The notes under the pieces are model-generated. The model ran no database searches. It had not been told where the DNA came from and was given only the letters and a program-made list of their open reading frames with translations. Shown in pieces: positions 5,605 through 30,194 of a stretch of 33,496 nt of DNA. The stretch is from an uncultured Lachnospiraceae bacterium (GTDB taxonomy: Bacteria; Bacillota; Clostridia; HGM11327): contig CAYOGO010000001.1 in the NCBI GenBank assembly GCA_964403405.1, positions 1 through 33,496 on the forward strand, in the 5' to 3' direction. The position numbers and the translations under genes are program-made. Numbering within the stretch: the stretch's first letter is position 1; every line of letters starts with the position of its first letter.

Positions 5605-5636
5605 TTTTATCACTCCTCTCCTATATTATACTACTT

Positions 5637-6969: not shown

Positions 6970-7749
6970 TCACATTCTGTCATATTTAACTGCCACAATT
7001 TTGCCGTCCACCTTTGCGAATTTTTCCGGGAATAAAAACTTCTGCTTATACCTTGTTTGTTGTTCTTCCGACAAACTAAGGATGTTGTTTTCACAATGAG
7101 AAACGATAAGCGTGATATGTTCCACGCCTCGTTCTCTTAGAGCTTTTGCCGCAGCCACAAAAGTTCCGCCGTAGCTACAAATGTCATCACGAATAACAAC
7201 TCTTTTTGTGCCTTCCTCGAACCCCATAATCTCATACGATTCGATACGACCTTCCGCGTTGCGCCGCTTGTTTCCGATAATTTCGGGAAGACCACATCTG
7301 GCATACTTTTTAGCCGCCCCGGCATCTGGGAACATAATCGCATCCGCTCCTTCTGTTGCCTCATAACTCAGAGCATCCTCATAGTTAATAAGACATCTAT
7401 CAAGCAGTGCGGTGCTAACGTCGGAATGAGGGTCGAGCACTACGACTATTGAAAAATTGAGAGAGTTGATAATCTCGGCAAATGATTTGAGCGTAAACAA
7501 TCGTCCGCTTACATTTCTATCCTGACGAGCGTGAGGGATGTACGGCATATTCAGAATGTTTTTGGCGTGAGGCATTCTGTTCTGAATATCTCTTGTTATA
7601 CAATACAAAGCAAACAACTCTGCGTCGTTGTCATACATCCAACAAATTTCGTTATGTTCGTAAATATACTGTCCCGAGATTGCTACACATTTAAGTGTTC
7701 CATCACCAAATGTTTCCTGTGGTATTTCAATTCCGTTAACCGTAATCAT
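6970..7749 (-). CDS. ribose-phosphate pyrophosphokinase (PRPP synthetase)-like enzyme
   Basis: The MPYIPHARQDR, VVLDPHS, FPDAGAAKKY and VVIRDDICSYGGTF motifs of the Prs family are present. At 259 aa it is short. Confidence 0.8.
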   Translation of the reverse strand: MITVNGIEIPQETFGDGTLKCVAISGQYIYEHNEICWMYDNDAELFALYCITRDIQNRMPHAKNILNMPYIPHARQDRNVSGRLFTLKSFAEIINSLNFSIVVVLDPHSDVSTALLDRCLINYEDALSYEATEGADAIMFPDAGAAKKYARCGLPEIIGNKRRNAEGRIESYEIMGFEEGTKRVVIRDDICSYGGTFVAAAKALRERGVEHITLIVSHCENNILSLSEEQQTRYKQKFLFPEKFAKVDGKIVAVKYDRM

Positions 7750-8289
7750 TTACTTCACCTCGATCTGGCACGTTCTCATTACTGTCAAAGCAGCTTCGTG
7801 TGTTTCTGGGGTCACACCCGCACAACAACTTGAATCAACCGCAATATCAAGTTCTGGGTAATGAGCTTTAAGTAGCATCGCGTTAGACACAACGCAGATG
7901 TCAGTACACAAGCCAACAAGTTCGACATACTCGACACAAGAGCCACGAATGATTTCTGGCAATGCTGTGCTGCCGAATGTGCGCTTTGTTAGTGTGCTCA
8001 GAGCAGAACAATGCTCACAAGACTTGTCAATCAATGTTGCCATAATATCCGCATTGATTTTATGTCCGTCGGTATCTTCGATACAGTGAGGAATCGGCAA
8101 AAACTTGCCCTCTCTCGTTTCCATATAGTCCGCACCGTGGGTGTCCATCGTGCAGATTATATCTCCGTCCCAACCAATGATCTTTTCAATCACTTTTGGA
8201 ACAATAGCTTGTGCCTCTTTTGTGCCAAGCGCTCCGTCGATAAAGTCATTTTGCATATCGACGATTATTAACAGTTTCTTATTTGTCAT
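7750..8289 (-). CDS. isochorismatase-family cysteine hydrolase, nicotinamidase (PncA)-like
   Basis: LLIIVDMQNDF (Asp), the DTHG...H metal-site-like stretch and VGLCTDICV (nucleophile Cys) are present. TAAATG junction with the Prs-like gene. Confidence 0.75.
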   Translation of the reverse strand: MTNKKLLIIVDMQNDFIDGALGTKEAQAIVPKVIEKIIGWDGDIICTMDTHGADYMETREGKFLPIPHCIEDTDGHKINADIMATLIDKSCEHCSALSTLTKRTFGSTALPEIIRGSCVEYVELVGLCTDICVVSNAMLLKAHYPELDIAVDSSCCAGVTPETHEAALTVMRTCQIEVK

Positions 8290-8303
8290 ATTGATTCCTC
8301 TCC

Positions 8304-10538: not shown

Positions 10539-10733
10539 TTAACATCTCCTTGCCTCGACATCAGTGTCGTAAAATTTAATAGTTATTGTTTTAGTGCCTT
10601 TTGTGAACCTTCTTGAGCGGATTTCCGTTCTTATCATTGTATTACTTACGGTGTTACCATAAGCACCACGATCTGCTACGCAGAATTCCCCAGTGATAAT
10701 ATGTAATGTGGATTTATCTTCACAAAAAGCCAT

Positions 10734-10818
10734 TGGTGTCGCTAACAAGACTCGAACTTGTATGCATTTCTGCTCTGGTTTTTGAGACCAGTGTGTCTGC
10801 CATTTCCACCATAGCGAC
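10734..10818 (-). tRNA. tRNA-Leu (anticodon CAA), class II, CCA encoded
   Basis: Acceptor GTCGCTA/TAGCGAC; anticodon arm CTGGT-CTCAAAA-ACCAG; 13-nt variable arm; T arm ACAAG-TTCGAGT-CTTGT; discriminator A; 85 nt. Confidence 0.9.
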
Positions 10819-10979
10819 GTATTAAGCCATTCTCCAACTCTCCCAACCTTTCAGTTGCACAGGGCGTACTGTGTAGGGCGGCGCTTACCCTGAAGTTTCT
10901 ATCACCGCAGATTGTTGTATCCTCTGCAAGTACCGGCGCTTTTAGAGAATGGCGCGTTGGCTGATACAAACCAACGCAT
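10819..10979 (-). ncRNA. structured ~160-nt spacer between two tRNAs (unknown RNA)
   Basis: No credible ORF. A 9-bp long-range helix GCCATTCTC/GAGAATGGC encloses ~110 nt with internal hairpins, and a 7-bp hairpin GCGTTGG/CCAACGC sits beside it. Confidence 0.3.
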
Positions 10980-11068
10980 TGGCTGGGATGGCTGGATTTG
11001 AACCAGCGAGCAGCGTTGCTGACTTGTCGGAGTCAAAGTCCGATGCCTTACCGCTTGGCGACATCCCA
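10980..11068 (-). tRNA. tRNA-Gln(UUG)-like with an anomalous 19-nt variable arm
   Basis: U1:A72, G73 and the D arm TCGCCAAGCGGTAAGGCA match the E. coli tRNA-Gln. Anticodon arm TCGGA-CTTTGAC-TCCGA; T arm GCTGG-TTCAAAT-CCAGC. The variable region is CAAGTCAGCAACGCTGCTC (hairpin CAGC-AAC-GCTG). 89 nt. Confidence 0.7.
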
Positions 11069-11169
11069 TCGTTGCGCTTATTCTCTTACCCTTTTATATC
11101 GCGCACACCTGCTTATCCACGGCTATTGCCTGATACGAGTTTCTCAAGGGTACAGGTGGTGGTATTTCT

Positions 11170-12006
11170 TTATAAAAATCTTTCGATATAAACTCTATCC
11201 TGTGTAAACACTGGAATTTCTGCGTCAATCACCCATCGAGTTCTTGGATAGAAGCCATCCTTAATGTCTACATCGGGGTCTTGATATTCTTCTTTTACAC
11301 AACACACTCCGCGCTTAAACTCCGTAGGCATATCGTTAAAATTGATTGACTTCTCAGTCATTAACATCTCTTGGATGTCATTGCAGGACTTTCCGTGTAA
11401 TGCTTTGTGTGAGAAATTACACTGTCCGAGCATCTGAATGGCGTTTCGTGTTGCGTCCTGCTGTCTCCAGATAAAACAATTGACTACTTCTTCGACAGGA
11501 ATGTTAAAACATCGAGAGTCGAACATCGCAATTCCAATTTTTGAGAAGTACGAGTCATACAGTGCGTCGAACTCTTCTACGCTAAGTGGTTGCGAGCCAA
11601 TATCGCTTGTGTAGTAATCGTACCTACGATTGACTTCTTCCGCAAAGAACTTGTTAAACGCCATTGTAGCCATACTTGCAGAAACACTGCAAATTTTCTG
11701 AACATTGTTATCGAACCAAGCGTCTGTAGTAAGCGTATCGTAGTCCGTCAGTAGCAAGGTGATTTCGTCGGACTGAGTATATCCGAGCTTAACACACTGA
11801 ATATTCTCGCACAGATACTTCATAGTGTTGTTCATTGCGAAGTGAAAGATTTCGTCATATGGCTTCGCCAATCCTCTTGTAAAGGTGTGAAACGCCTTAC
11901 CATCAAGTCTTATAATCACGGGCATTCGACGCACGAGGTATGTCTTAGCTCGATTCTCATAATTGTTTTTCATACGGTCTCCGAGAGAGTCTTTCTTATT
12001 GCTCAT
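11170..12006 (-). CDS. tRNA-His guanylyltransferase (Thg1)-like 3'-5' polymerase (TLP)
   Basis: GDRMKNNYE...VIIRLDGKAFHTFTRGLAKPYD...GYTQSDEITLL is the Thg1-family signature. Confidence 0.85.
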   Translation of the reverse strand: MSNKKDSLGDRMKNNYENRAKTYLVRRMPVIIRLDGKAFHTFTRGLAKPYDEIFHFAMNNTMKYLCENIQCVKLGYTQSDEITLLLTDYDTLTTDAWFDNNVQKICSVSASMATMAFNKFFAEEVNRRYDYYTSDIGSQPLSVEEFDALYDSYFSKIGIAMFDSRCFNIPVEEVVNCFIWRQQDATRNAIQMLGQCNFSHKALHGKSCNDIQEMLMTEKSINFNDMPTEFKRGVCCVKEEYQDPDVDIKDGFYPRTRWVIDAEIPVFTQDRVYIERFL

Positions 12007-12033
12007 TATGTATTCAGTCCTTTCGTTTATTTA

Positions 12034-12108
12034 TGGTCGGGGCGACAGGAGTCAAACCTGCTTGACCTTGTTCCCAAAACAAGTGGGTAGTCGTTACCCT
12101 ACACCCCG
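12034..12108 (-). tRNA. tRNA-Pro (anticodon UGG), CCA encoded
   Basis: Acceptor CGGGGTG/CGCCCCG; anticodon arm CTTGT-TTTGGGA-ACAAG; T arm GCAGG-TTTGACT-CCTGT; 75 nt. Confidence 0.85.
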
Positions 12109-12170
12109 TTAATTGTTTTGAGCCGACTATTACGGGGCGCCCAGAGGGTGGACACGTTTGAATTCCACAT

Positions 12171-12253
12171 TGGTGCGGATAACAGGAGTTGAACCTGCAC
12201 GGGTAACCACCAGATCCTAAATCTGGCGTGTCTGCCAATTCCACCATATCCGC
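12171..12253 (-). tRNA. tRNA-Leu (anticodon UAG), class II, CCA encoded
   Basis: Acceptor GCGGATA/TATCCGC; anticodon arm CCAGA-TTTAGGA-TCTGG; long variable arm; T arm GCAGG-TTCAACT-CCTGT; 83 nt. Confidence 0.9.
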
Positions 12254-12749
12254 ATATAGAAGATGCATAAGTGACTCCGCTATCCGCCTCGCCCTTTGCC
12301 TTTACGCAAGACTACCATTCAATCACAACTCCATCTACGAGGACGAACCTTTCGTATGGTTTGTCGTGGTCTTTTCAGCTTTAATGATAGCAGGAGTGTT
12401 CGTGTTTCTCATCGTATACTACCAAGGTATTTGTCGTGCGGCTATGGCTTGGCGACTATTTCAGAGCCTACCTTCGGTTGTACATCGCAACCTAACCGCT
12501 ATTTCTTTATAGCCCGACGCTCTCGCGCCACCTTGGATTCCGACCGCCACTCACAGCCGTGATATGTTATCTCAATCGGGCTTTCTTGCAAATAAGAGGG
12601 CTCAAACCTCTGACTTATAGGTTTTACTCGTACAAGGAACTTCCCCTTGGAGTCTTAGCTACTACCCTAATCGTGTTCTCACTACACCATATTTGCGTAT
12701 CGCGGCTACGTGAGGCTTCCGTAGCCGTTTGTTTATTTAGTTACTGTCG
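12254..12749 (-). ncRNA. ~500-nt ORF-free, multi-helix region adjoining the tRNA cluster (candidate large structured RNA)
   Basis: Only short ORFs on the opposite strand. Minus-strand helices include CGGCTACG/CGTAGCCG (12703-12727); GCAAATA...TATTTGC closing a 110-nt tRNA-like unit with the T-arm-like AGAGG-TTTGAGC-CCTCT; AGCCCGA...TCGGGCT closing 72 nt; and GCGGTTA...TAGCCGC closing 62 nt. Confidence 0.35.
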
Positions 12750-12974
12750 TTATTGCCCGTAATAATCCTTCTCATACGACGTCTTCTTGTATACGCCAAA
12801 GAACACGCCAAGTCCTACGCCCACAAGAAGGACGAGGATGCCAAAAATAAATCTACCATTTTGTTTTCTCCTTAAAAAATGTTTAATTTCCGACTGGGAT
12901 AATTGTCGGAGTTTTCGTTGGCAAAAGCCTCCTTTGCCATTGTTGCATTGTATCCCACATAGAATACCCAGCAA
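12750..12974 (-). CDS. possible small membrane protein (start uncertain)
   Basis: The ORF carries a strong TM segment, FIFGILVLLVGVGLGVFFGV. The track's start is a TTG, and the internal AAGGAG is not followed by an in-frame ATG. Confidence 0.3.
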   Translation of the reverse strand: MLGILCGIQCNNGKGGFCQRKLRQLSQSEIKHFLRRKQNGRFIFGILVLLVGVGLGVFFGVYKKTSYEKDYYGQ

Positions 12975-13268
12975 GTTAAGCTTGAGAAATAAACAACTAA
13001 TAAAAACAACCAGCTAAGTTCGGGTCAATCTTAAAGATTTCGATTTATTGAACTTTGGCGAAAGTCCTTATATAGTCTTGCTTTCTTGGACATTCGGTTT
13101 GAGGGCGTTGATAAGTCGAGTCGATTGTGCTGCACACGGGTTTGTTATACAATAGTACCTGCCAGTTACGCGTCCTGCCGGGAATGTTCCCTCTCATCAT
13201 TTTGTTACTTTTGATATCACCAAAAGCGTTACCTTACGATAACAATATCGAATACAATGCTATTGTTT

Positions 13269-13601
13269 TTATTCAACTCGTTTGAACCAAAGGTATTCTA
13301 TATAGTCATCAGTGACATACTCACCACAGCAATCACAGTCAAACAACGCACTCATTACTGCTCCTGTTTCTTCTGGATCAAGCAGAAGCTCGTGACAAAC
13401 ATCGTACTGGAGTGTAGCGCACAGTTCCAACTCGTAGAACTCGTCTGCATCTCCGTCGCTCTTTTCCAGATAGAAGTAACAACCGCTTTCGTGATGCAAG
13501 AACACCTGAAAATCATCGTAATCAAGAACGATTTCAAACTCTTCTTCGTGAGTGTAATAGTACAGACAAAAATCTGTGTAATTGGTAATTTCGTAATCCA
13601 T
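13269..13601 (-). CDS. hypothetical acidic protein (110 aa)
   Basis: ATG at 13601 after GGGGATGAGGTG. Very rich in D, E, Y and C. Confidence 0.65.
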   Translation of the reverse strand: MDYEITNYTDFCLYYYTHEEEFEIVLDYDDFQVFLHHESGCYFYLEKSDGDADEFYELELCATLQYDVCHELLLDPEETGAVMSALFDCDCCGEYVTDDYIEYLWFKRVE

Positions 13602-18052: not shown

Positions 18053-18430
18053 ACCGATTTCCTTTCTCTGACTATTTACAATCCACGTAGTGTAAAGCTT
18101 GGTCGTAATCCTGAGGATGTCTCGAGAACAAGCTCTGGACAGCGTTAATCATCTGCGAATAGGTGGCTTTCGATTGATGTTTCGTAGAAAAAGTTTAATA
18201 TTTTCTTTGAAAAGATACCAAATTCGTGGAGGATTGGTCTTGACAATCGGACAACTGATTGCGATGACGGCTTCGTGAGCGTTCGTTTCTGGGCAGGCAT
18301 CTCCTTGGATACCGTCCGCCCGCCAGTGGGTTCTTCCGACATTTTGTTACCTTGAATATCATCCAAGGCACCCATCTAATGATGAGCAATAACGATTGTA
18401 AATTAGTTTTTATTTAATCAAACTTGTATT

Positions 18431-18619
18431 TTATTTGCGAGCGTCTGCAATTGACGCAATCATATTGGCGCTGACTATGCCAAAGTTGATTCCAAGCAAC
18501 CAAATATAAAGGTTGTCATTTGTTGCTGTAACGATGTTAAAAATACCAAGGATTGTAAGCAGTATCAGCCAAACGGCATCCAATATTACTCGATTCCATC
18601 TGTTCCAAAACTTTCTCAT
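18431..18619 (-). CDS. small two-TM membrane protein (62 aa)
   Basis: Two hydrophobic segments (ILDAVWLILLTILGIF and LLGINFGIVSANMIASI). The ATG overlaps the DGR RT stop by 4 nt. Confidence 0.55.
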   Translation of the reverse strand: MRKFWNRWNRVILDAVWLILLTILGIFNIVTATNDNLYIWLLGINFGIVSANMIASIADARK

Positions 18620-19659
18620 ATTGCCTCCTGTGCTGTATTATTAAATAGCTGCGATACGAATTCATCCATACTTTCCAATAGTCTGTGACAGTTTCCGTGA
18701 GATGCGTGATTTTTCCAAGGCTCATACTTCTCTGTGAACGATTCCATCGTCATCTTCCCATTGATTACAAGTCTTGCGTACTTTCTCAATCTTTTCTTGA
18801 TTTGTCGTTTGTTTTCGCCAGTTAATCGACGAATGATAACACCGTCTTCGGTAATGTATGTATGAAATCCAAGAAATCTCAACCCTTTGCGTATCGACAC
18901 GATTTCCGTTTTATTGTTCAAAGTCAGGTGTAAAGTATCGAGATATTCTTCAATACGCTTGAGGCAATACTTCAAATATTCTTTGTCTTCGGATATTAGA
19001 TAAAAGTCATCCATATATCTTCCGTAATACTTACACCCGAGCTCTTCGGTAATAAAGATGTCAAGCCCCGCCAGATAAATCAAAGCGAAAACCTGACTGC
19101 ACTGATTACCAAGCGGCAGACCGTTCCCGTCTGTGCTGTCTATAAACAGATCGCACAACCACTGGATCTCCTCGTCCGTGAAATACTGACGAATGATTGC
19201 TTTCATCACATCGTGATCAATGCTATAAAAGAACTTCGTTATATCACACTTGAGAATATATCCATCGCATCCGTGTTCTTGGTAGAACAAACGCATATTC
19301 TCGGAAAGCCGGTCTAACCCAAACAAGGTTCCTTTCCCAATCTGTCCTGCGTAATTGTCTTTAATGAAAACTTCTTTCATTCTCGGCAATAATACGTAGT
19401 CACATAGGCAGTGCTGTAAAACCTTGTCGCGGAAAGAACCTGATTTGATGTTTCGCGGTTTGGGTTCAGTGACAACAAATTCTGCGTAAGGAGATATTTG
19501 GTATGTATGTTCAATCAACTGTCGCCTCATAACGCATATGTTTTCAAGTGCCATAGCGTCAAATTTTATAGCGCCTTTCTTTTTTCCCTTTCCCCTCATA
19601 GACTTCTTGTATGACTTATACAAGTTGCCGAAATCTGTTACAATCTGAAAATCTCCCAT
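18616..19659 (-). CDS. diversity-generating retroelement (DGR) reverse transcriptase
   Basis: RT motifs include the DGR-specific LPLGNQCSQ ([I/L]GxxxSQ) and YMDDF. The gene lies immediately downstream of the TR. Confidence 0.92.
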   Translation of the reverse strand: MGDFQIVTDFGNLYKSYKKSMRGKGKKKGAIKFDAMALENICVMRRQLIEHTYQISPYAEFVVTEPKPRNIKSGSFRDKVLQHCLCDYVLLPRMKEVFIKDNYAGQIGKGTLFGLDRLSENMRLFYQEHGCDGYILKCDITKFFYSIDHDVMKAIIRQYFTDEEIQWLCDLFIDSTDGNGLPLGNQCSQVFALIYLAGLDIFITEELGCKYYGRYMDDFYLISEDKEYLKYCLKRIEEYLDTLHLTLNNKTEIVSIRKGLRFLGFHTYITEDGVIIRRLTGENKRQIKKRLRKYARLVINGKMTMESFTEKYEPWKNHASHGNCHRLLESMDEFVSQLFNNTAQEAI

Positions 19660-19773
19660 AATATTCCTTTGTATTTATCCCACATCCTGTGAGAAAGGTT
19701 ATATGCTCTTTTGATAGTGTGGAGCACTCCTTGTAGCCACCGAAGTGACTTATAGACCTCACTTATCCACCAG

Positions 19774-19856
19774 AACGGGCGAACGCCGCCGTTGTCATTG
19801 TCGCAGTCGTTCCAGTTCAGAACGCCATTCGAGTTGACGTAGCAAACGTTACGAGC
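19774..19856 (-). repeat. DGR template repeat (TR), 83 nt
   Basis: Aligns over 83 nt with 20282-20364 (9 differences) and 29482-29564 (10 differences). Every difference is at a plus-strand T of the TR, which is A on the transcribed minus strand. Confidence 0.92.
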
Positions 19857-19881
19857 ATCAGCATATAGCCTAAAACATCAA

Positions 19882-20244
19882 TCAGGTCTTCCGCCAAGCA
19901 AGTGTCATATTTTTGATGTCGTGAACCAAGCCAGTCCACGTCTCGCTTGTGGCATAACTAATGAGGTGAGCGTGAAGACTATACTTCACAAGACTCATAA
20001 GCTTATTACACTTTGTAATTGCGCTTGTCTGTAACTCAAACCTCTTTGCTTTGTGTTGTGGCGTTTCAGCTCTATATCCGTTAGCATCAAGAATATCACT
20101 ATGGATATCAAGTGCGTATTCTTGGAGCCGAGTAGCCAATCTTTGAAATTTAACGGGATAATGACTTCGGTTGGTGGTTATGTCAAAAATCGAGAAGTAA
20201 AGTGCCTCGCTCTTTCCCGCAATTTCAAATGTTGTTTCTGGCAT
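19882..20244 (-). CDS. avd: DGR accessory variability determinant (Avd-like four-helix-bundle protein)
   Basis: 120-aa helical basic protein located between the target gene and the TR, which is the canonical position and size. Confidence 0.7.
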   Translation of the reverse strand: MPETTFEIAGKSEALYFSIFDITTNRSHYPVKFQRLATRLQEYALDIHSDILDANGYRAETPQHKAKRFELQTSAITKCNKLMSLVKYSLHAHLISYATSETWTGLVHDIKNMTLAWRKT

Positions 20245-20250
20245 AGTGTG

Positions 20251-20853
20251 TTAAATCAAGAGAGAAGATTTCAAGATACAAAACGGGCGAACGCCGCCGC
20301 TGCCAATGTCGCAGGCGTTCCAGTCCAGAACGCCATTCGAGCGGACGCAGCAAACGTCACGAGCGTATCCCTCTACATCTGCACTTACTCTTGTCGCCGT
20401 ATGCCACCAACTTCCGTATGCGGGCAAGAATTTTCTGTACGCTCTGTATCTTTCTGTCGTCAGAATAGACACATAGTCTTCACAAACCTTTACTCCCGTT
20501 CCGTCATCAGCCGTCAGGTCTGTCTGATGCTTCACGATATTTTCCTTACCTACAGCACCTGCGATTTCCTTATAGAAATCGTTATTCAAGTAGGCGCGGA
20601 TATCGCTGTTGAGATAATCGCCCGTCTTTCCGAACGCCATCTTCTTAACGAAATCCTTGGCGATAACCGCCGTAACACCATTCAGATGCTGAAGAACAAT
20701 GTATTCTCTTTTGCCGAGCTTAATAATCGCTCCGGGCTCGTGCTCTCCAAGAGCTTTACATCCCTCGGGAGACAATGTAATAATAACAGTACCGTCATTC
20801 TCGCTCGTTGTTACCCTTACGTTGGGTGCGTTGTTTACAATTTCAACTCTCAT
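20251..20853 (-). CDS. DGR target protein 1 (C-type-lectin-fold variable C-terminus)
   Basis: ATG at 20853 after AGGAGAAAATCA. The C-terminus ...WWHTATRVS...NGVLDWNACDIGSGGVRPFCIL contains VR1. Confidence 0.85.
   Translation of the reverse strand: MRVEIVNNAPNVRVTTSENDGTVIITLSPEGCKALGEHEPGAIIKLGKREYIVLQHLNGVTAVIAKDFVKKMAFGKTGDYLNSDIRAYLNNDFYKEIAGAVGKENIVKHQTDLTADDGTGVKVCEDYVSILTTERYRAYRKFLPAYGSWWHTATRVSADVEGYARDVCCVRSNGVLDWNACDIGSGGVRPFCILKSSLLI
20282..20364 (-). repeat. DGR variable repeat VR1
   Basis: 83-nt match to the TR with 9 A-site substitutions. It ends 31 nt before the stop codon. A GC-rich IMH-like GGCGGCGTTCGCCCG lies at its 3' end. Confidence 0.9.
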
Positions 20854-20881
20854 TGATTTTCTCCTGTTATGTAAAAGATTT

Positions 20882-21418
20882 TTAAGAAACACGGAGTACA
20901 CCTCCGTTCACTTCCGTATATCCATCTTCGCTTAGTAACTCCCCAAGCTTTTCGTAGTCTATACATTCAAGAAGCGTTTCCTTGCTGAACATTCCATCGT
21001 CTGCGAATTGCTCAGCAAGTTCGGTCAAAGTAGTTCTTGGATAGAAATCGACATCTCTGTCCTCGACCTTGTCGATTGCATCTTCCAACGAATATCCTTC
21101 GCTATCTATTAACGCTACCATCGCGTCATATTCATAGTCCTGTAAGTCCTCAATGCGTTCAACCAAGTCGCTCGCACTGTATGGATTCTCACAATCGGAC
21201 TGAGTTAAAATCTCGGAACTAAAGTCCAAAACCTCATATGTGTCTGACGGACTATCTCCAGCCATCAAACTGTCAAAGTCGTACTCTGCGTCTGGATCAA
21301 TTCCCATTTCTTCTAACATCTCGTTGAATTCGTTTTCCGTAAACGGTAAATCAATCCACCTCGGTGCGACCTGACGATTACTGCTTCCTATGAGCAGTTT
21401 GGAATAAGTATTTATCAT
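20882..21418 (-). CDS. ardA: ArdA-like antirestriction (DNA-mimic) protein
   Basis: APRWIDLPFTENEFNEMLEEMGID...EY and the C-terminal CIDYEKLGELLSEDGYTEVNGGVLRV parallel Tn916 ArdA (GAWFTFPIDFEEVKEKIGL...; NYIDYQAYGRDL...HGIFEIV). Highly acidic. ATG at 21418 after GAGAGGTG. Confidence 0.6.
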   Translation of the reverse strand: MINTYSKLLIGSSNRQVAPRWIDLPFTENEFNEMLEEMGIDPDAEYDFDSLMAGDSPSDTYEVLDFSSEILTQSDCENPYSASDLVERIEDLQDYEYDAMVALIDSEGYSLEDAIDKVEDRDVDFYPRTTLTELAEQFADDGMFSKETLLECIDYEKLGELLSEDGYTEVNGGVLRVS

Positions 21419-21962: not shown

Positions 21963-22772
21963 TTACACAGAAGTTATTCCAATTACATCTTCCCAGCTAA
22001 GACCATTGTCTTCCACATCTGGTTCTTCTGTACATACTGGCATATCTTCTGCTTCGTCGTCTGGGTCGTCCTCCCACTCGTCTTCCTCGAAGTCGTCTTC
22101 TGTATATCCCCATATGTCCATTGCTAACGCACGGTCGTCCTCTACATCGAGCTCGCTTCCATATCCTTCGCTATACCACATCTGCCCGCAATTGTTTCCG
22201 ATATCTTCATCAGCCCAACGGTGAGTGAAGTCAAGGTCTGGATATTTTTCAGCCAGAGCCTCAATAATCGGGAATGGCGCAGACCAAGCGGTCTGAAACA
22301 CCAACATTCCTTCATCGAGACTCCATTCAGCGTTACAAGCATTCCACTTTGTGCCCCAGTTACGACGACACCAGTCAAACCAAGTGTAACAACCGTAATG
22401 TTCTCGATTGTACATATACTGCTTACCGTCTTCGTAAAGTTTGTCCCATACTTCGGGAGACGTCTCTGTGGAATTCTTGAGCCGCGAAACGACTTCGTTA
22501 GCCCAGTCGTTGTTAAAACAATTGGAGATCAACCCAGAAAGGTTTGTTTGCTCGACGGGAATTGTCAACCGTTCCGTAACATAATAAGCAATCGCTCTGT
22601 CTGTATTTGAGCCCGACTCAATATTCAGAGACTCAGGCATAGGAATGAGCTTGTTGAAGTCAAATGCTCGTTCTTCGTTTTCTGTCGATAGCTTTAACTC
22701 GCGGACTAACGCCGCAACTTTTTCGTCACCGATATTTTCAAAAATAATTTCGTTTTGTACCCAGTTTGGCAT
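21963..22772 (-). CDS. DUF1281/Api92-like protein with acidic tail
   Basis: MPNWVQNEI...RNWGTKWNA...FQTAWSAPFP pattern, remembered from plasmid and phage ferredoxin-like DUF1281 proteins. The C-terminal 60 aa are extremely D/E-rich. Confidence 0.55.
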   Translation of the reverse strand: MPNWVQNEIIFENIGDEKVAALVRELKLSTENEERAFDFNKLIPMPESLNIESGSNTDRAIAYYVTERLTIPVEQTNLSGLISNCFNNDWANEVVSRLKNSTETSPEVWDKLYEDGKQYMYNREHYGCYTWFDWCRRNWGTKWNACNAEWSLDEGMLVFQTAWSAPFPIIEALAEKYPDLDFTHRWADEDIGNNCGQMWYSEGYGSELDVEDDRALAMDIWGYTEDDFEEDEWEDDPDDEAEDMPVCTEEPDVEDNGLSWEDVIGITSV

Positions 22773-22782
22773 TACTCCTCCT

Positions 22783-22974
22783 TTATGAGACTGTCAATCT
22801 CCCATCAAATGTGATTGGAGTATGATGCACCATTCCTGCTGATTGCCTAAAACGGTACTTGAGGTTGGATATCGCTCGTGCTTCTGAAACAGCCCAAGTG
22901 GAGGCTCTCCAGTGTCTCGCAGCCAGATTATCGAAAGCGTAGACTGCGCCTTCATATGTGTATTTTCTGCTCAT
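22783..22974 (-). CDS. hypothetical protein (63 aa)
   Basis: ATG at 22974 lies 6 nt after AAAGGAG. It is the first gene after paralogous leader B. Confidence 0.55.
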   Translation of the reverse strand: MSRKYTYEGAVYAFDNLAARHWRASTWAVSEARAISNLKYRFRQSAGMVHHTPITFDGRLTVS

Positions 22975-23314
22975 AAATTCTCCTTTCACTATTTGCTTGT
23001 TATTGATTCCTTACAATCCAACGCGGTTGAAGCTCATCAGAAAGATTTCTTCTGAAGAAGTATTTCAGCTCAATTTTGATGTCTTTGAAAGTATCGAGTT
23101 CGTTTGTTTTCAAGGTTTTCCTTTGAAAACAACAGCAATAACATTGGGATTTTCGGTAGTTTCTGCACTTGCGAGCAGTTTCCTGTGGCAAACGGTTCGC
23201 CAGCAATGTGCTGCGCCAACGTCTTCCTTCGGAAGCCGGCTCTCCATCGTCTCGCTTCTTCGGACATTGTGTCACGTTTGATATCATCAAACGCATCATC
23301 AAACAAAGTTAATG

Positions 23315-23344
23315 ATAATAGCGATTGTAAGCTGTATCCGTCAA
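23315..23344 (-). promoter_or_regulatory. candidate sigma-A-type promoter (TTGACG-18-TATTAT)
   Basis: Minus-strand cTTGACGgatacagcttacaatcgcTATTATc at the head of leader B. Confidence 0.4.
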
Positions 23345-23400
23345 GATACTCAAAAATTCTTGGTGGCTTGTAAGCTTGAAAGAATTTTTCTTGAAAATTC

Positions 23401-23456
23401 CTCCTCTGTCGTAGAACAAATCTGCGCCTTGCGCAGATTTGTTCTTCGTCTGAGGA
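23401..23456. other. perfect 14-bp inverted repeat inside an extended CTCCTC/GAGGAG stem
   Basis: GAACAAATCTGCGC-ctt-GCGCAGATTTGTTC (23414-23444), flanked by ctcctc...gaggag. No U-tract on either strand. Confidence 0.6.
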
Positions 23457-23569
23457 GCGAATTTTTAGTAATCATCGTTGTATTGCATTCGGTATGACCA
23501 GATGCTCTATCAAATAAGGGGAATATGTATGTGATAGAAAGACCTATCCAGACGGATAATTATGTTTAA

Positions 23570-24712
23570 TTACGGATTAAGCAAAGCCTTCGCCGTAGCT
23601 AAAACATCTTTATTGAATTTTGTGGAGTACGCATTGAGAATTTTGTCAATCTCCTCGCCCTCTACCATCTTGTAGTAGGCAACGAGACCAAGGAAATGCT
23701 GTACGTCCTCGAGTTCCCAAGCAACGCCTTTCGCATCGTCAGTCATAAACTGGAAGATCATTGCTTTGAAGACCTTTTTCTTTTCGTGACCGATTGTAAT
23801 CTTGTTCTCTTTGTTGAGCATAACTCCCAAATTCCAGTTTCTTCCCGCCGAAGAACCATATCTGGTCTTCTCTGCGTTAAGCGTAAACGGAGCTGAGAAC
23901 TGATTGAAAATGTCGGTTATCTTGTTCTGCACGGCCGTCCAATGGAAACTGAACTGGCTGGAAATCAACATATCGTCAGCGTATCTTGTATAACAAAGAT
24001 GCGGACTGTATTCACGACACATCTTTGCAATCGCGTGATCGATGGGAATCATCATCATATTCGTCAGCATTGGACTGGTGGGCGTTCCCTGCGGCAAACC
24101 GCCATTCAGGAAACAAAGAGATAATGCTTTTTGAAGCACCTCTCTGTATCCGTAATCATAATTTACGAACACACAAAACGGATAAAGCTCGCAGAGCATA
24201 TCCATCAAAAACTTCTCTGTAGTGGACGGAAAGAAACCCTGTGCATCGAGTTTTAAGAACCAACGGGAGTTGTTTGTCTGGTGACGCTTTACGCTGTCAA
24301 TCGTGCTTCTACCGTGAACATACGCAAAAGCGGTAGTATGATAGGATGCGAAAAATTTCTTTTCGAGAATTTCTTTCAGCTCTCTCAAAGCCTTCATCAG
24401 CTCGTCTTGGGGAGCATCTATCTTACGCAAACCGCCACTTCTTTTAGGAATTTTGAAACTTCTATAAAGCACAGACTTATCTTCCGTATTGATAAGACCT
24501 GCGTACTTTTCGTTAAAAGCCACGAGAGCTTCATACATACCACGGAAGTTTGTCTTTTCGATCAAATTGGGGTTAATGTTGTTTGTGAGCCACGTCCTTG
24601 TGTCTCTGGTGTCTTTCGCCGGCATAAAATCCGACTCACTACATCCGTTCAGGATATCGTCAAACGTGAGCTGATACGTTCTCGGTTCGACATTTACGGT
24701 AATATACGGCAT
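23570..24712 (-). CDS. retron-type reverse transcriptase (380 aa)
   Basis: Block-by-block similarity to the Ec86 RT: FKIPKRSGGLRKIDAP, KLDAQGFFPS, GLPQGTPTSPMLTN, YTRYADDMLIS and LGVMLNKENKITIGHEKKKVFKAMI (the VTG-region equivalent). ATG at 24712 after AAAGGAAC. Confidence 0.85.
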   Translation of the reverse strand: MPYITVNVEPRTYQLTFDDILNGCSESDFMPAKDTRDTRTWLTNNINPNLIEKTNFRGMYEALVAFNEKYAGLINTEDKSVLYRSFKIPKRSGGLRKIDAPQDELMKALRELKEILEKKFFASYHTTAFAYVHGRSTIDSVKRHQTNNSRWFLKLDAQGFFPSTTEKFLMDMLCELYPFCVFVNYDYGYREVLQKALSLCFLNGGLPQGTPTSPMLTNMMMIPIDHAIAKMCREYSPHLCYTRYADDMLISSQFSFHWTAVQNKITDIFNQFSAPFTLNAEKTRYGSSAGRNWNLGVMLNKENKITIGHEKKKVFKAMIFQFMTDDAKGVAWELEDVQHFLGLVAYYKMVEGEEIDKILNAYSTKFNKDVLATAKALLNP

Positions 24713-24725
24713 ATTGTTCCTTTCT

Positions 24726-25054
24726 TTCTGTAATCGCGAGGTACAGATGACTGTCTGAAGACTCACCGCGGTCGGCGATGCATCTTCTGCGTCGTCATCG
24801 CAAGGTTAACAGGCGGTAGTCGGGTGGGCAAAGCTGTAAGGAAAACGGGTGTGATTTGGTAATGACGGGTTGGTTTCAAGTAAATTTAATATTAACTTGA
24901 CACTTATCCGCACGAAATGGCTCCGAGCACCTCGTTACTCCTGATGGAGGCGTCACGCCTTCTGTCCCACTGGGGCTGCCATCTCTTGACATTTTGGTAC
25001 TTTCGGTAAAACCCAAAGCCTTGTGTCCGAAGAAACAAGAATAACATTACAGAA
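24726..25054 (-). ncRNA. candidate RT-associated ncRNA (retron msr-msd-like)
   Basis: 329-nt region free of ORFs >=60 aa between rnhA and the RT. It is bounded by the 9-nt inverted repeat TTCTGTAAT (25054-25046) / ATTACAGAA (24734-24726), with a G right after the 5' arm. A UUCG-capped hairpin lies at ~25020-25040, and there are several GC hairpins. Confidence 0.4.
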
Positions 25055-25059
25055 TTGTT

Positions 25060-25500
25060 TTATTTTTGATTGTTGGTGTAAGCCTCTACGGCAAGTTGGT
25101 CACAGCGCTCGTTTTCTGGGTGACCATTATGTCCTTTGATCCAAACAAATTTGACTTTGTGAACCTTGAGTAGCGATAAGAGTTCTTCCCATAAGTCTGA
25201 GTTCTGGGCAGGCTTACGGTTAGACTTTCTCCAACCATTTGCCTTCCAGCTTTCAGCCCAACCTTTCTCAATGCCGTTTACAACGTACTGAGAATCGGTT
25301 GTCAAAACAACCTCGCACGGCTCTCTTAATGCATACAGTGCTTGAATAGCAGCCGTCAACTCCATTCGGTTGTTCGTCGTGTCTGGGTTAAACCCCGATA
25401 ATTCTTTGATCGCGGAGCCGTACCTTAATACGGCTCCCCAACCACCACTTCCGGGATTGCCAGAGCACGCCCCGTCTGTGAATATTTCGACACGCTTCAT
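25060..25500 (-). CDS. rnhA: ribonuclease HI
   Basis: [25 protein letters not shown]...TTNNRMEL...TDSQYV...[16 protein letters not shown] is near-collinear with E. coli RNase HI, with the DEDD residues present. ATG at 25500 after GAGGAA. Confidence 0.95.
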
Positions 25501-25519
25501 ATATGTTTTCCTCAACGAA

Positions 25520-26206
25520 TTACATCGTCATAATATCCATAGCGAACGGATTGCAGACAACGATCTTCTGCAATTCGCCGCCACGAATGAGGTTCATAAA
25601 GTTTGTAACGCCGAGAGCACAAATTACCCTAACTGTAGGGGCGACACCGAGCTCTGTGCCGCAGGCTGTTACAGGAGTAGCCTCGTGTGCTTCGTCGTGA
25701 GAGAAAGCCATCGACTTGATAAGATTGTCCACCTGACGCATATCGCCCCAGTCTGCGGCGTAATGCTGTGCATCTTCAAGACGCGTTCTGAAATCAAACA
25801 CGGCTTTGATTGCCTTGTTCATACGATTCTTCTCGCAGATTTCACGTCTCAAGTCGATATTATCAACGGCAAGGAACACGTAACCGTTGAGCTTCTGATC
25901 TGTGTATCCCTGCCCGAACACCTCTATGGTGCTTTCCGCTTCGGGGTTGATATCACAGATGATTTTCTTAACTGCTTCAACCTTAGGTTTCTTGACGTCG
26001 CTCTGTACGAACATCTGATTTGCAAGGTTGTGCGGCTCGACAATGTCGAAATCATAAAGAACGAATTTCGTCACGCCGAGTCTTGCGAGATTTTCTGCGA
26101 CAGTAGATCCCACGCTGCCACAACCGATGATGTGGCACTTGCCACGTACGTTGACCGGATCAAAGTATTCGATAGACTTTGTTAAATCCATTAGTGCCAC
26201 CCCCAT
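25520..26206 (-). CDS. minimal ThiF/MoeB-type E1-like adenylyltransferase (~223-228 aa)
   Basis: [38 protein letters not shown] is a Rossmann/ATP loop of the E1 superfamily. The start is at 26206 or the TAATG-coupled 26191. Confidence 0.8.
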
Positions 26207-27102
26207 TCTCTCGAGTAGAACGGATCACTCGGGTCTTCGTCAACCCCATAGTAATCATCGTCGTCATCTCTTACGTTTGTGCTTTTTGTGTCGTTTTTTT
26301 TACTGTATCCAGTTCCTGCGGCGGACGGAGTTTTAGCCGTCGGCTTCTGAGAACCACCATACGAGTTTCCGCCGTATGAACTTCCGTTGTACGAACCTCC
26401 ATATCCATTGTAGGAACTGCCGTAACTCTTACCGCCGTAAGACGAAACAGTCTGCACAGCAACTTTCTTTGCCTCCAAAACGAAATTGTCAACGGTATCG
26501 CCGTCGTCGAGCATCACCATCATATCAATTTCCTTGGCAGTCGTCGAATACATAGCGTTGTACGTTAAATCGTAGATTTCTGCGCTCCAATCGTGACTTT
26601 TGTTGATGATGAGGAAGATGTAGAATGTATCGTTATTGGCATCGGGTTTAGGAAGCTGGGTGATAACGTCCTTGCGATAATCGGTATCGGTTACGGACGG
26701 AGATACCGGCATATTGACGTGAGAATGTCCGTGGAAACGGAGCGCGTTAAATTTTTCGTCGTCAAGACCGTTAATCCAGTTGGAATATTTCTCCTGATCG
26801 GATGTAACGGTTGCGGCGGTTACAGTGTGAGGAGGAACAAGAATATCGTAAATCTCAAACTCACACTCGGAGAGACGTCTGACTAAGCCGTGCCACTGAA
26901 CCTCCGTAGAAAATTCAGAGACGAGAGCCGTCATCTTAATCCACGCCATAGGCGTGAAGTAAAGCAACGCACATCTGTCGTCGCTCTTAAAATTCTGTCG
27001 GATGTCAATGCTACCATAGCACTTCGAGTTGAGAATCTGCGCTCTCAAGGCTTCGATAATGCGTGTAGCCTCATCCTGCGGTACATAAATTGGCTTAGCC
27101 AT
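26191..27102 (-). CDS. JAB/MPN (JAMM) metallopeptidase with S/Y/G-rich low-complexity tail
   Basis: JAMM motif H126-S-H128-x7-S136-x2-D139 (nt 26686-26727). C-terminal SSYGGKSYGSSYNGYGGSYNGSSYGGNSYGG is followed by an acidic DDDDDYYGVDED stretch. Confidence 0.8.
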   Translation of the reverse strand: MAKPIYVPQDEATRIIEALRAQILNSKCYGSIDIRQNFKSDDRCALLYFTPMAWIKMTALVSEFSTEVQWHGLVRRLSECEFEIYDILVPPHTVTAATVTSDQEKYSNWINGLDDEKFNALRFHGHSHVNMPVSPSVTDTDYRKDVITQLPKPDANNDTFYIFLIINKSHDWSAEIYDLTYNAMYSTTAKEIDMMVMLDDGDTVDNFVLEAKKVAVQTVSSYGGKSYGSSYNGYGGSYNGSSYGGNSYGGSQKPTAKTPSAAGTGYSKKNDTKSTNVRDDDDDYYGVDEDPSDPFYSREWGWH

Positions 27103-28497: not shown

Positions 28498-28740
28498 TTA
28501 GAGCGCGAGTGCGCCATCTGCCTTGACAATGGCGTTAAGGTTCGCAGTGGAACCATCGGCAACTCTGAGCTCCTCAAAGGTCTTGCCGAAGTCTGCTGCG
28601 GAGAGGATTGCACCGTCGAGATTGACCATCGAAGTAGAAGTATCAACGCCAAGCTCGGCGAAAACCTCACGGGGAGTGGAGGTTACATCTGCGGAAACGG
28701 TGCGGCGGGTAGTGTTAGTTCTTACATTGATCGAAATCAT
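28498..28740 (-). CDS. ThiS/MoaD-like ubiquitin-like beta-grasp protein (80 aa)
   Basis: ATG at 28740 lies 10 nt after AAGGAG. VNLDGAIL...LRVADGSTANLNAIVKADG-ALAL parallels the ThiS pattern vNg..v...l.dGD.v.i...v.GG. Gly76 is followed by a 4-aa tail. Confidence 0.55.
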   Translation of the reverse strand: MISINVRTNTTRRTVSADVTSTPREVFAELGVDTSTSMVNLDGAILSAADFGKTFEELRVADGSTANLNAIVKADGALAL

Positions 28741-28826: not shown

Positions 28827-29225
28827 TTAGGCGTTGGTGATACCACCAATGAGAGCTGCTCTCTCGGTCTTGATGGTCGCAACCACTTCGGGAAGCGATG
28901 CCTCAAGAGCGTTAACGTGAGCAAGAGCTGCGCCGACAACATCGGCTACGTACTCACCAGCGTTGGGAGTACCCTCGGGAAGCTTCTCGGGAATATCGCC
29001 GGTAACGATTGCGTAACCGTCAGCGTTGACTGCGCCGAAGGTAGCGCCGTTCTTGGAGATGCAGGACTTGCCAGCAACATAGGACATACCGAAGATGTCG
29101 TTGCCATCGCTGTCCTTGATCTTCAGAGCATCGGGACGATACCTCTTGACAAGCTCAAGGTCTTCCTTCTTGATGGTGGAGGTGAGAACGTACTTTGCTA
29201 CGTCTCTGTGAAGAGTGATTTTCAT
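28827..29225 (-). CDS. hypothetical protein (132 aa) with ...LIGG-ITNA C-terminus
   Basis: ORF whose third codon positions look visibly G/C-rich compared with its neighbours. AAAGGGAAAACCT precedes the ATG. Confidence 0.7.
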   Translation of the reverse strand: MKITLHRDVAKYVLTSTIKKEDLELVKRYRPDALKIKDSDGNDIFGMSYVAGKSCISKNGATFGAVNADGYAIVTGDIPEKLPEGTPNAGEYVADVVGAALAHVNALEASLPEVVATIKTERAALIGGITNA

Positions 29226-29441: not shown

Positions 29442-30194
29442 TCAACTGTGAGCAGTCAAGACACAAGATTTCAAGATACAAAACGGGCGAACGCCGCCGC
29501 CGTCACAGTCGCAGCCGTTCCAGTCCAGAACGCCAAGCGAGCCGACGTAGCAAACGTTACGAGCGTATCCGCTTTCTTCGATAGCGCTCTTTCGTGTGGC
29601 AGTCCACCACCATCCGTCTGAACGAATGTGTTTGCTGTACTTTCGATAACTGTCAACCGTCATCAGAGAGATATAGTCTTCGACAAATCCGTAATCAGCT
29701 CTGCCGTCCTCTGGCGTTGTGTCAACGCGATGCTTGATGATATTCTCTGCTCCAACAACCGCAGCAAGCTCGTTGTAATATTCTTCGTTTAGATATCGAC
29801 GAACCCTGCTCGTTTCGTAATCTGCTTCGTCTCCGAAAGCCATAAAGTTTACAAAATCATAGTGTAGCAAAAGCACGTTCTCTCCGATGTAATCAAGCAC
29901 GATATACTTCCATCTGCCAAGTCTAACTTGACTGCCAACGGTAGGCAAACCATCTGCCGTACCAGATACGTTATACGAATTCATATCAATGATTTTTTGT
30001 GCAGGAACTTCTGCGGGAATAAAGTTCTGGTAGATACACCCTGTACTCTCTCCGGGCATACCTGCAAACAACGGACACCCTGCACAGCCCGTAGTTCTTC
30101 CCCAACAAAACTCTTGGATGCTATTTATCGCATCCGCTACATTTTGCGGCAACCCGATTGCCTCGGGTGTAATAGTGGTTTCTCTTTCTGACAT
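29442..30194 (-). CDS. DGR target protein 2 (remote target, 250 aa)
   Basis: The C-terminus ...WWWTATRKS...LGVLDWNGCDCDGGGVRPFCIL is paralogous to target 1 and carries VR2. GAAGGGAG SD. Confidence 0.85.
   Translation of the reverse strand: MSERETTITPEAIGLPQNVADAINSIQEFCWGRTTGCAGCPLFAGMPGESTGCIYQNFIPAEVPAQKIIDMNSYNVSGTADGLPTVGSQVRLGRWKYIVLDYIGENVLLLHYDFVNFMAFGDEADYETSRVRRYLNEEYYNELAAVVGAENIIKHRVDTTPEDGRADYGFVEDYISLMTVDSYRKYSKHIRSDGWWWTATRKSAIEESGYARNVCYVGSLGVLDWNGCDCDGGGVRPFCILKSCVLTAHS
29482..29564 (-). repeat. DGR variable repeat VR2
   Basis: 83-nt match to the TR with 10 substitutions, all at TR adenines (minus strand). It shares the same IMH-like 3' end and downstream TTTTGTATCTTGAAATCTT as VR1. 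Confidence 0.9.

Follow-up and report, generated by a model that had tools for sequence, protein, structure and literature searches.

Multi-copy structured RNA units of a retron-clade reverse transcriptase lie beside a conserved ubiquitin-like protein operon in a lineage of gut phages

Introduction

Retrons are known as bacterial defence systems that combine one template with a toxic effector. When a phage carries a retron-like reverse transcriptase (RT), what would the enzyme copy, and with which proteins would it act? The question is raised by a stretch of 33,496 nucleotides (nt) from an uncultured Lachnospiraceae bacterium (GenBank assembly GCA_964403405.1, contig CAYOGO010000001.1, positions 1 to 33,496 of the forward strand), which we call the window. 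A preliminary description of positions 23570-25515 had proposed a phage-encoded module made up of a retron-like RT, an adjoining structured non-coding RNA (ncRNA) and a dedicated RNase H.

We compared this locus with some 80 related loci in phages, in which the RT is 36-97% identical. Very probably the enzyme is an RT of the retron type, paired with a cognate structured ncRNA, and the proposal of a phage-borne RT-ncRNA module was supported. Synthesis of complementary DNA (cDNA) from the ncRNA units is likely, and the balance of the evidence tips towards a functional link between the RT-ncRNA pair and a neighbouring module for a ubiquitin-like protein (Ubl). Taken as a whole, a multi-unit phage retron coupled to the Ubl operon is a reading that we regard as moderately probable. 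Its new elements are the multi-template arrangement, the hypervariable core of the RNA and the Ubl partnership; none of the described retron types has this combination.

A reverse transcriptase of the retron clade

The RT gene and the hairpin that follows it lie as follows.

23570-24712, minus strand: retron-clade RT of 380 amino acids (aa), with its ATG at 24712
23420-23455, minus strand: terminator-like hairpin, GAACAAATCTGCGC-AAG-GCGCAGATTTGTTC, about 120 nt past the RT stop codon

The enzyme falls within the retron clade and has the catalytic YADD intact. All four RT motifs quoted in the preliminary description were found in the 380-aa open reading frame (ORF), which matches Pfam RVT_1. 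Its 25 best matches in PADLOC were all retron RT models, headed by RT_II-A (7.6e-52), and its best match in NCBIfam was retron_St85_RT (NF038233; 189.7 bits). The NCBIfam models for group II enzymes and for defence-associated RTs (DRTs) scored far below the retron models, the Drt2 equivalog giving only 41.6 bits against a cut-off of 390. All top PDB matches were retron RTs, namely Ec83 (7e-28), followed by Ec78, Ec86 and Ec67. The earlier statement that this enzyme is not the RT of a diversity-generating retroelement (DGR) was likewise borne out, and a separate DGR is present at 18616-20901.

Retron RTs carry NAXXH in region X and VTG in region Y, with H and G as the most conserved residues (PMC7736814). 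On alignment to Ec83, NAKIH corresponded to SVKRH and VTG to NLG. Throughout the family the histidine and the glycine (H144 and G296) do not vary, and N, A, V and T of the retron motifs are replaced. YADD and 80 further columns are invariant over the whole family (35-97% identity), which forms a clade of its own found on hundreds of contigs. The N-terminus has some 45-55 residues more than that of solved retron RTs. Residues 1-80 are a family-specific extension that opens with a near-invariant MPYIT, is absent from solved retron RTs and has no detectable homologue. The strong terminator-like hairpin after the RT closes the operon.

The RNA unit beside the reverse transcriptase

The spacer upstream of the RT contains a unit, U1, with the following parts.

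24726-25054, minus strand: ncRNA unit U1, 329 nt, the probable cognate of the RT
25046-25054, minus strand: 5' arm of the terminal repeat (a1), TTCTGTAAT
25045, minus strand: candidate branching G
25020-25039, minus strand: hairpin H1
25000-25018, minus strand: hairpin H2
24988-24999, minus strand: tail, UACCAAAAUGUC
about 24755-24987, minus strand: hypervariable core
about 24735-24754, minus strand: a2-proximal segment, conserved in close relatives only
24726-24734, minus strand: 3' arm of the terminal repeat (a2), ATTACAGAA

The preliminary description had bracketed the spacer between the RNase HI gene and the RT by a 9-nt inverted repeat with a G after its 5' arm, and had likened this to the a1/a2 repeats and the branching G of retrons. 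The repeat was confirmed, with TTCTGTAAT at 25054-25046, ATTACAGAA at 24734-24726 and 13 nt from the 3' arm to the ATG, as was the G at 25045. The 347-nt spacer was also devoid of long ORFs, the largest being only 46 and 47 aa, and the retron-like geometry covaries across homologues. The interior hairpins and the three ACCCG(T/A) repeats that had been reported are present, but they fall within the hypervariable stretch and are not shared by relatives. When close relatives were aligned, conservation was confined to ~75 nt at the start and ~20 nt at the end of the region.

The terminal arms vary in sequence and preserve their complementarity, with about 25 arm variants. The arms TTCTGTAAT/ATTACAGAA occur in the window and in one relative (L007), CTTGTGAC/GTCACAAG in a group with 74% RT identity, and AAAAAATTGTGAT/ATCACGATTTTTT in a relative with 43% identity. 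Arms were located under constrained geometry, and one locus that will concern us below (L052) and others were checked by eye. As a rule across 94 loci, the 5' arm lies 250-450 nt upstream and usually has a G after it, and the 3' arm ends 11-31 nt before the RT ATG.

It had been cautioned that a short repeat of this kind may arise by chance, and for one sequence the caveat is fair. A single 9-mer repeat being weak evidence, we therefore made an independently anchored test, in which the windows were fixed by the nhmmer match to hairpin H2 and by the RT start. When G-U pairs were allowed, random windows reached repeats of 7-8 base pairs, and the repeat statistic was not discriminating (real mean 9.2, nulls 7.5-7.8). 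With Watson-Crick pairs only, runs of at least 8 were found in 39 of 47 non-redundant loci, the two controls giving 3.5% (shuffles) and 1.3% (cross-locus pairings); a run of at least 9 occurred in 0.6% of shuffles. G followed the 5' arm directly in 40 of the 47 independently anchored loci, and its column was invariant in one alignment.

The order of elements after the G is a linker of 3-6 nt, the variable hairpin H1, the shape-conserved hairpin H2 and a tail like UAACAAAUUGUC. RNAalifold, run on a plain MAFFT alignment, recovered H2 with compensatory changes in all six of its six pairs. A structure-aware alignment of 38 distinct sequences showed double changes in 23 of 24 pairs across a1/a2, H1 and H2, with a covariation score of 0.786, compared to 0.235 in shuffles (0/500 reached the real value) and ~0.1 for slid partners. 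Since the structural alignment is partly circular, the RNAalifold result and the anchored Watson-Crick test serve as independent support. The fold of the whole U1 region was not significant alone (z = -1.56); covariation, not fold energy, carries the case for the ncRNA. A search of the whole window against Rfam at gathering thresholds yielded tRNAs only, and a search over 22900-25200 with E up to 10 gave no relevant match, the terminator hairpin producing weak spurious ones.

Several units per genome

The preliminary description had placed an ncRNA only upstream of the RT. The unit proved instead to belong to a multi-copy family that flanks the RT, and the window holds three further members.

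23010-23331, minus strand: U4, 322 nt, downstream of the RT; a1 CTTACAATC, G at 23322, a2 GATTGTAAG
18074-18403, minus strand: U3, 330 nt, downstream of the DGR RT; a1 ATTTACAATC, G at 18393, a2 GATTGTAAAT
12945-13260, minus strand: U2, ~316 nt, ~11 kb away; a1 GCATTGTATTC, G at 13249, a2 GGATACAATGC

Each of the four units in the window has its own complementary arms. With a covariance model of the 5' part, U1 scored 48 bits, U2 41.5, U3 21.5 and U4 16.6 (E = 0.11); as the last two scores are weak, U3 and U4 are assigned to the family by their arms, the architecture in common and the U3/U4 repeats. These two units are paralogues whose arms differ in a compensatory manner. The presence of downstream units accounts for the ORF-poor gap of ~580-690 nt after the RT, and U3 and U4 account for the direct repeats downstream of both RT genes. 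Both U4 and U3 end 21-22 nt ahead of the next ORF.

The same model found one unit upstream and one or two immediately downstream of the RT in most loci, and an nhmmer profile gave 126 matches, just one of which fell within 70 unrelated retron loci. All matches obtained with either model were on the gene strand. By position, 60 of the units in family loci adjoined the RT upstream, 52 lay just downstream and nine elsewhere. An a1/a2 score of at least 7, anchored at the G, was reached by 111 of 123 family units, and by 4 of 123 when the anchor was shifted by 12 nt. The median length from the G to a2 was 299 nt, and the arms were confirmed by eye in three loci (L043, L024 and L050).

Tandem arrays of up to eight units, spaced ~280-420 nt apart, were also seen downstream of the RT and RNase HI (L013, 6151-9771; also L012, and L043 at 6601-6922). 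An A-rich motif (AATAAAAAC[A/T]A) stands a few nt before a1 in U1 (25055-25070), U2 (13262-13275) and U3 (18404-18418), all on the minus strand, and U4 contains TAACTTTG, which resembles the Bacteroidota -7 promoter box. Both could be promoter or processing signals of the units.

A sharply bounded hypervariable core

The units contain a core of ~200-250 nt that diverges as fast as the synonymous sites of the RT, or several-fold faster. The comparison used three groups of near-identical phages, in which the msr-like part is 94-99.5% and the RT 96-98% identical.

Group g1: core identity 79%, RT third-codon identity 95%
Group g2: core identity 72%, RT third-codon identity 90%
Group g3: core identity 55%, RT third-codon identity 90.5%

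Variable columns begin directly past the H2 tail and end 20-30 nt short of the 3' end. In four loci with an identical RT protein, all ncRNA differences fell at positions 108-268; the core rate in this group was about the synonymous rate and not higher. The downstream units show the same pattern of core variability. An excess of divergence confined to the core would best be explained by diversifying selection on the cDNA or by error-prone cDNA recombining back into its locus, and one may speculate that the sharp bounds reflect either an arms race on the cDNA or error-prone cDNA that recombines into its own template.

Several other explanations of the core were considered and rejected. Adenine mutagenesis of the DGR type does not fit, as the substitutions have no base bias (A 31, T 29, G 27, C 27). 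The core might encode a small protein, since an NTG is conserved at a fixed distance past H2. However, the ORFs that start from it have a median of 27 codons, compared to 15 and 25 in the other frames, the indels of the core are of 1-2 nt and not multiples of three, and U3 and U4 share no protein similarity. A guide or spacer function was dismissed because only chance 10-12-mers of the core match elsewhere within the window. There is no second copy of the core in the window, and the four cores had no match in 50,697 GenBank phage records, host genomes not being searched. An internal motif of the UGUCAAG type was rejected as a universal element, being present in only 10 of 24 arm classes. When cores were folded against dinucleotide shuffles, the mean z was -0.7, with z < -2 in 9% of 79 units, and within the cores RNAalifold on two close groups gave no more than scattered support.

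A conserved operon with a ubiquitin-like protein

The genes that precede the RT and U1 in the window are listed in the order in which they are read.

28827-29225, minus strand: p132, first gene of the block
28498-28740, minus strand: Ubl beta-grasp protein, 80 aa
27095-28468, minus strand: p457, a conserved protein with invariant His371 and Cys377
26191-27102, minus strand: JAMM/MPN+ metalloprotease; HSHVNMPVSPSVTD fits HxHx7Sx2D, with a conserved Glu67 upstream
25520-26206, minus strand: ThiF-family E1-like adenylyltransferase (PF00899, 3e-23)
25060-25515, minus strand: RNase HI, likely ATG at 25500

ORFs from 64 representative loci were clustered for a census of the operon. The block has the order p132, Ubl (~78 aa), p457, JAMM, in some loci an acidic protein, ThiF, then optionally RNase HI, a DUF6273-like gene or a ~95-aa gene, and finally the ncRNA and the RT. 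It is present in 60 of the 64 loci (ThiF in 60, JAMM in 59, p457 in 57), and the genes on either side of it vary between loci. Wherever the flank suffices, tblastn placed p457, a JAB-like protein and ThiF ahead of the RT, and even the most divergent p457 homologues (29-32% identity) retain the block together with the RT.

The Ubl was modelled with AlphaFold2 at a pLDDT of 82, and the top Foldseek matches of the model were ubiquitin, with a probability of 1.0 and TM scores of 0.6-0.7. The protein ends in an invariant VKADGA with 2-3 variable residues after it; other clades end at KADNA. In four loci (L037, L049, L053 and L072) the Ubl and the p132 homologue form a single protein of 205-232 aa, with the Ubl as its N-terminal part. 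The junction, in which KADNA is followed directly by A, implies processing of a Ubl-protein fusion by the JAMM enzyme. HxHx7Sx2D is present in all 58 of 58 full-length JAMM homologues, together with the conserved Glu. For the E1-like protein, the PADLOC E1 matches cover the nucleotide-binding part only; assignment to a PRTRC-type ThiF cassette was rejected, its E of 6.5e-6 being far below the cut-off. The p457 protein had no match in Pfam, NCBIfam, PHROGs or PADLOC, and a model of it (pLDDT 91) had no fold match in the PDB; a PP-loop assignment, suggested by an SGGxD-like stretch, received no support from the fold search. It could be a candidate E2-like component. The cysteine of p132 is not conserved. 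The acidic protein found between JAMM and ThiF in some loci has ~180 aa.

A full-length RNase HI gene next to the spacer, as described earlier, was confirmed: it scored 222 bits against a cut-off of 160 for the NCBIfam RNase HI equivalog, and its DEDD-H active-site residues are visible. It is not, however, the dedicated or conserved partner that had been supposed. RNase HI is a lineage-specific accessory, seen only at RT identities of at least 53%; depending on the locus it precedes or follows the RT, and tblastn did not find it within 5 kb of the RT in the remaining family; the conserved partners are Ubl, E1, JAMM, p457 and p132. In L028, L037, L055 and other loci (45-50% RT identity), a DUF6273-like gene of ~265 aa fills the RNase HI slot. 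It shares this weak family assignment (E = 6.5e-4) with the DGR target.

The classification of retrons into types I-XIII does not mention ThiF, ubiquitin or JAB (PMC7736814), and we found no association of retrons with any of the three in the literature.

Proposed mechanism and alternative explanations

We propose that the RT would recognise the hairpins common to the units and prime on the 2'-OH of the conserved G, and that part of each unit's core would be copied into single-stranded cDNA resembling multicopy single-stranded DNA. The template RNA would be trimmed by RNase HI, phage-encoded in one sub-clade and host-supplied elsewhere. Several RT-cDNA complexes might control, or cooperate with, the Ubl conjugation module as an output arm, in which the JAMM protease would expose the C-terminus of the Ubl, the E1 would adenylate it and p457 would be the candidate transfer enzyme. 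A more far-reaching version, to which we give rather little credence, is a self-diversifying multi-template retron with a cDNA repertoire, in which the cores are rewritten or drawn into an arms race and signalling proceeds via Ubl conjugation. The variable core would then mark the reverse-transcribed segment as a footprint of reverse transcription.

A number of observations weigh against a retron coupled to the Ubl module. The RT score of 189.7 bits is below the curated cut-off of retron_St85_RT (235 bits), and the retron motifs are only partly retained, with SVKRH for NAXXH and NLG for VTG. A stable msd hairpin, a criterion for retrons, had to be rejected on the z-scores of the core, which in this respect is unlike classical retrons. 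The structure-aware alignment was built by a stem-seeking parser, and its percentage of paired cells is circular. Everything that concerns reverse transcription is something we infer. The link to the Ubl module is one of gene order only, and since all loci belong to one phage lineage, shared ancestry adds to the operon signal. In one locus (L052) the RT and the ncRNA are present and the block is absent within 5 kb, and a recognisable E2 was not found in the block. Finally, a role of the units as leaders or small RNAs that is independent of the RT is conceivable, because they are multi-copy and often lie just upstream of other genes.

This last possibility, in which the ~320-nt units would be structured small RNAs or 5' leaders and not templates for reverse transcription, would agree with the multiple copies, the distance of ~21-22 nt at which U4 and U3 end ahead of the next ORF, the NTG at a fixed distance past H2, the Bacteroidota-like TAACTTTG box in U4 and a core without excess structure. 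We nevertheless consider it quite improbable. A unit lies 11-31 nt upstream of the RT in essentially all loci, the a1/a2 repeat with the following G is specifically retron geometry, the ORFs from the NTG are no longer than those in other frames and the indels do not come in threes, and the tandem arrays (L013, L028) leave no gene space at a spacing of ~280-420 nt. The units may alternatively be templates of a DRT-like enzyme that makes cDNA without a branch, primed by protein or RNA, such as the repetitive or concatemeric products reported for DRT2 and DRT9. The long, unstructured template region, the degenerate retron motifs, the lack of a classical toxic effector and the UGUCAAG-type motif repeated within some units would suit this view. 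Yet retron models far outscore DRT models (41.6 bits for Drt2, cut-off 390), the a1/a2 stem and the G after a1 are conserved, and the internal motif is confined to 10 of 24 arm classes; we rate the DRT-like scheme as low as the leader one. Least probable of all would be non-autonomous retro-mobile elements, similar to short interspersed elements, which the RT would copy to new places in the phage genome. Such elements would leave several copies in each genome, at positions that vary and in a single orientation, as is seen here, and the U3/U4 paralogues with compensatory arm differences point the same way, but arms and core are particular to each copy, which recent copies of a mobile element would not show, and sites immediately flanking the RT are strongly preferred.

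A different kind of alternative accepts the retron and disputes its partner: the retron would stand alone with RNase HI as its sole functional partner, and Ubl, E1 and JAMM would be syntenic neighbours in the phage backbone. The gene order may reflect descent within the one phage lineage that supplied all loci, L052 carries the RT and the ncRNA without the block, RNase HI stays beside the RT even after switching side, and no described retron type includes an E1 or JAB. On the other hand, the flanking genes vary freely and the block persists in 60 of the 64 loci, at identities as low as 36% for the RT and 21-29% for p457, and most of the family has no RNase HI within 5 kb. We therefore think a stand-alone retron unlikely, although it is an alternative to be taken seriously.

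If a multi-unit retron coupled to the Ubl operon is correct, retron effectors would extend to protein tagging, and the question would arise what use retron cDNA is to a virus. Comparative data alone would, in addition, show which segment of an RNA is reverse-transcribed. A compact RT that takes several long, weakly structured templates would be of interest for retron-based genome editing.

Comparison with known systems

Classical retrons (Ec86/Eco1, Ec83, Ec78, St85/Sen2; types I-XIII, PMC7736814) have an RT of the same clade. Shared with them are an ncRNA right upstream of the RT, the closing stem of a1 and a2, the conserved G after a1, short msr-type hairpins that the RT presumably recognises, and the H of region X and G of region Y. 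Unlike them, the present system has SVKRH and NLG motifs and extra residues at the RT N-terminus, a template region of ~250 nt that has no excess structure and outpaces synonymous sites in some groups, and several ncRNA units for each RT, placed before as well as after its gene. The ncRNA also has no Rfam match at E = 10. The partners (Ubl, E1, JAMM, p457 and p132, with RNase HI in one sub-clade) differ from those of the 13 described types.

Retrons are known on prophages and satellites, as with Ec73 on phiR73 and Ec67. These prophage retrons, and the RTs annotated in Klebsiella and Staphylococcus jumbo phages, likewise place a retron-type RT on a phage-like genome. The jumbo-phage enzymes are, however, only 24-28% identical to the window RT, and neither Ubl modules nor multi-copy ncRNAs have been reported for other phage or prophage retrons.

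Bacterial ubiquitin-like conjugation systems include Bil, Bub and Cap2/Cap3 of the cyclic-oligonucleotide-based anti-phage signalling system (CBASS). The block resembles them in its beta-grasp Ubl with a processable C-terminus, ThiF-type E1 and JAMM peptidase. It differs in that no E2 was recognised, the Ubl ends in Ala (KADGA/KADNA) and not in Gly-Gly, and the module of the window sits with an RT and is phage-encoded. Sulfur-carrier systems with a JAMM-trimmed carrier, namely CysO/Mec+/MoeZ and QbsE/QbsD/QbsC, likewise combine a JAMM protease and a ThiF/MoeB-like enzyme with a small beta-grasp protein that is extended at its C-terminus, and one source annotates a Ubl homologue as 'sulfur carrier protein ThiS'. 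Unlike in those systems, a Gly-Gly end, a sulfurtransferase and biosynthetic genes are absent here, and the genes lie in an accessory region of a phage.

A phage RT beside a sharply bounded hypervariable segment is also reminiscent of DGRs, but the units have no template/variable repeat pair, the base changes are unbiased and the hypervariable segment is non-coding. With DRT2 and DRT9 the locus shares an RT with an adjoining structured ncRNA template and no classical toxin gene; it differs from them in the RT clade, in the retron-style a1/a2 repeats with the G, and in the multi-copy units.

Genomic setting and possible role

Every gene of the window is on one strand, and there are five tRNAs. 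The carrier is a widespread lineage of gut phages of ~45-150 kb. Relatives of the RT at 73-97% identity were on metagenomic contigs of up to ~100-220 kb, some of which are labelled as Alistipes metagenome-assembled genomes (MAGs). A profile search of IMG/VR gave more than 560 candidate RT loci; in the best 80 of them the RT was 44-62% identical, on viral contigs of 8-147 kb, mostly 45-147 kb. A few additional relatives were binned in Clostridia and Lachnospiraceae MAGs, and one GenBank gut-phage scaffold carried an RT of 43% identity. Megablast of the locus against GenBank phages gave no match, the relatives having come via tblastn and metagenome collections. A tyrosine integrase is encoded at 4618-5613 on the minus strand (phrog_216, 2e-27), which suggests that the phage may be temperate.

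The neighbourhood of the operon includes the following features.

21963-22772, minus strand: Api92-like DUF1281_C protein, downstream of the retron RT
6970-12253, minus strand: likely a host-takeover or counter-defence-like cluster
11170-12006, minus strand: Thg1-like tRNA-His guanylyltransferase
8304-10538, minus strand: Pnkp/RNA-ligase fusion
6970-7749, minus strand: phosphoribosyl pyrophosphate (PRPP) synthetase

The neighbourhood is thus rich in counter-defence genes, with tRNA repair enzymes, tRNAs and PRPP synthetase in the window, and ArdA and Api92-like genes in relatives. The system presumably acts in genetic conflict between phage and host or between phages. Exclusion of competing phages or elements is a tentative assignment, towards which we lean slightly because retrons and Ubl systems are known defence modules that are often carried by phages; counter-defence or a decoy against the host appears rather unlikely, and a role of another kind slightly less likely still.

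The cluster at 6970-12253 (minus strand) also holds four tRNAs (Leu-CAA, Gln, Pro and Leu-TAG), and a gene for a nicotinamide mononucleotide transporter lies near the corresponding cluster in one relative. Genes for ArdA anti-restriction, DUF3846, LPD28 and DpnD-PcfM proteins, which are typical of anti-defence or leading-region islands, were found in relatives (L003-L006 at ~8900-9780; L173 at 10567-12649).

The separate DGR of the window is complete.

18616-20901, minus strand: complete DGR
20251-20901, minus strand: DGR target gene (phrog_9958)
20279-20364, minus strand: DGR variable repeat, at the 3' end of the target gene
19882-20244, minus strand: DGR Avd
19771-19856, minus strand: DGR template repeat
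18616-19659, minus strand: DGR RT, 347 aa

The template and variable repeats are 88% identical, with differences at coding-strand adenines. A paralogue of the DGR target gene is present at 29442-30194 on the minus strand.

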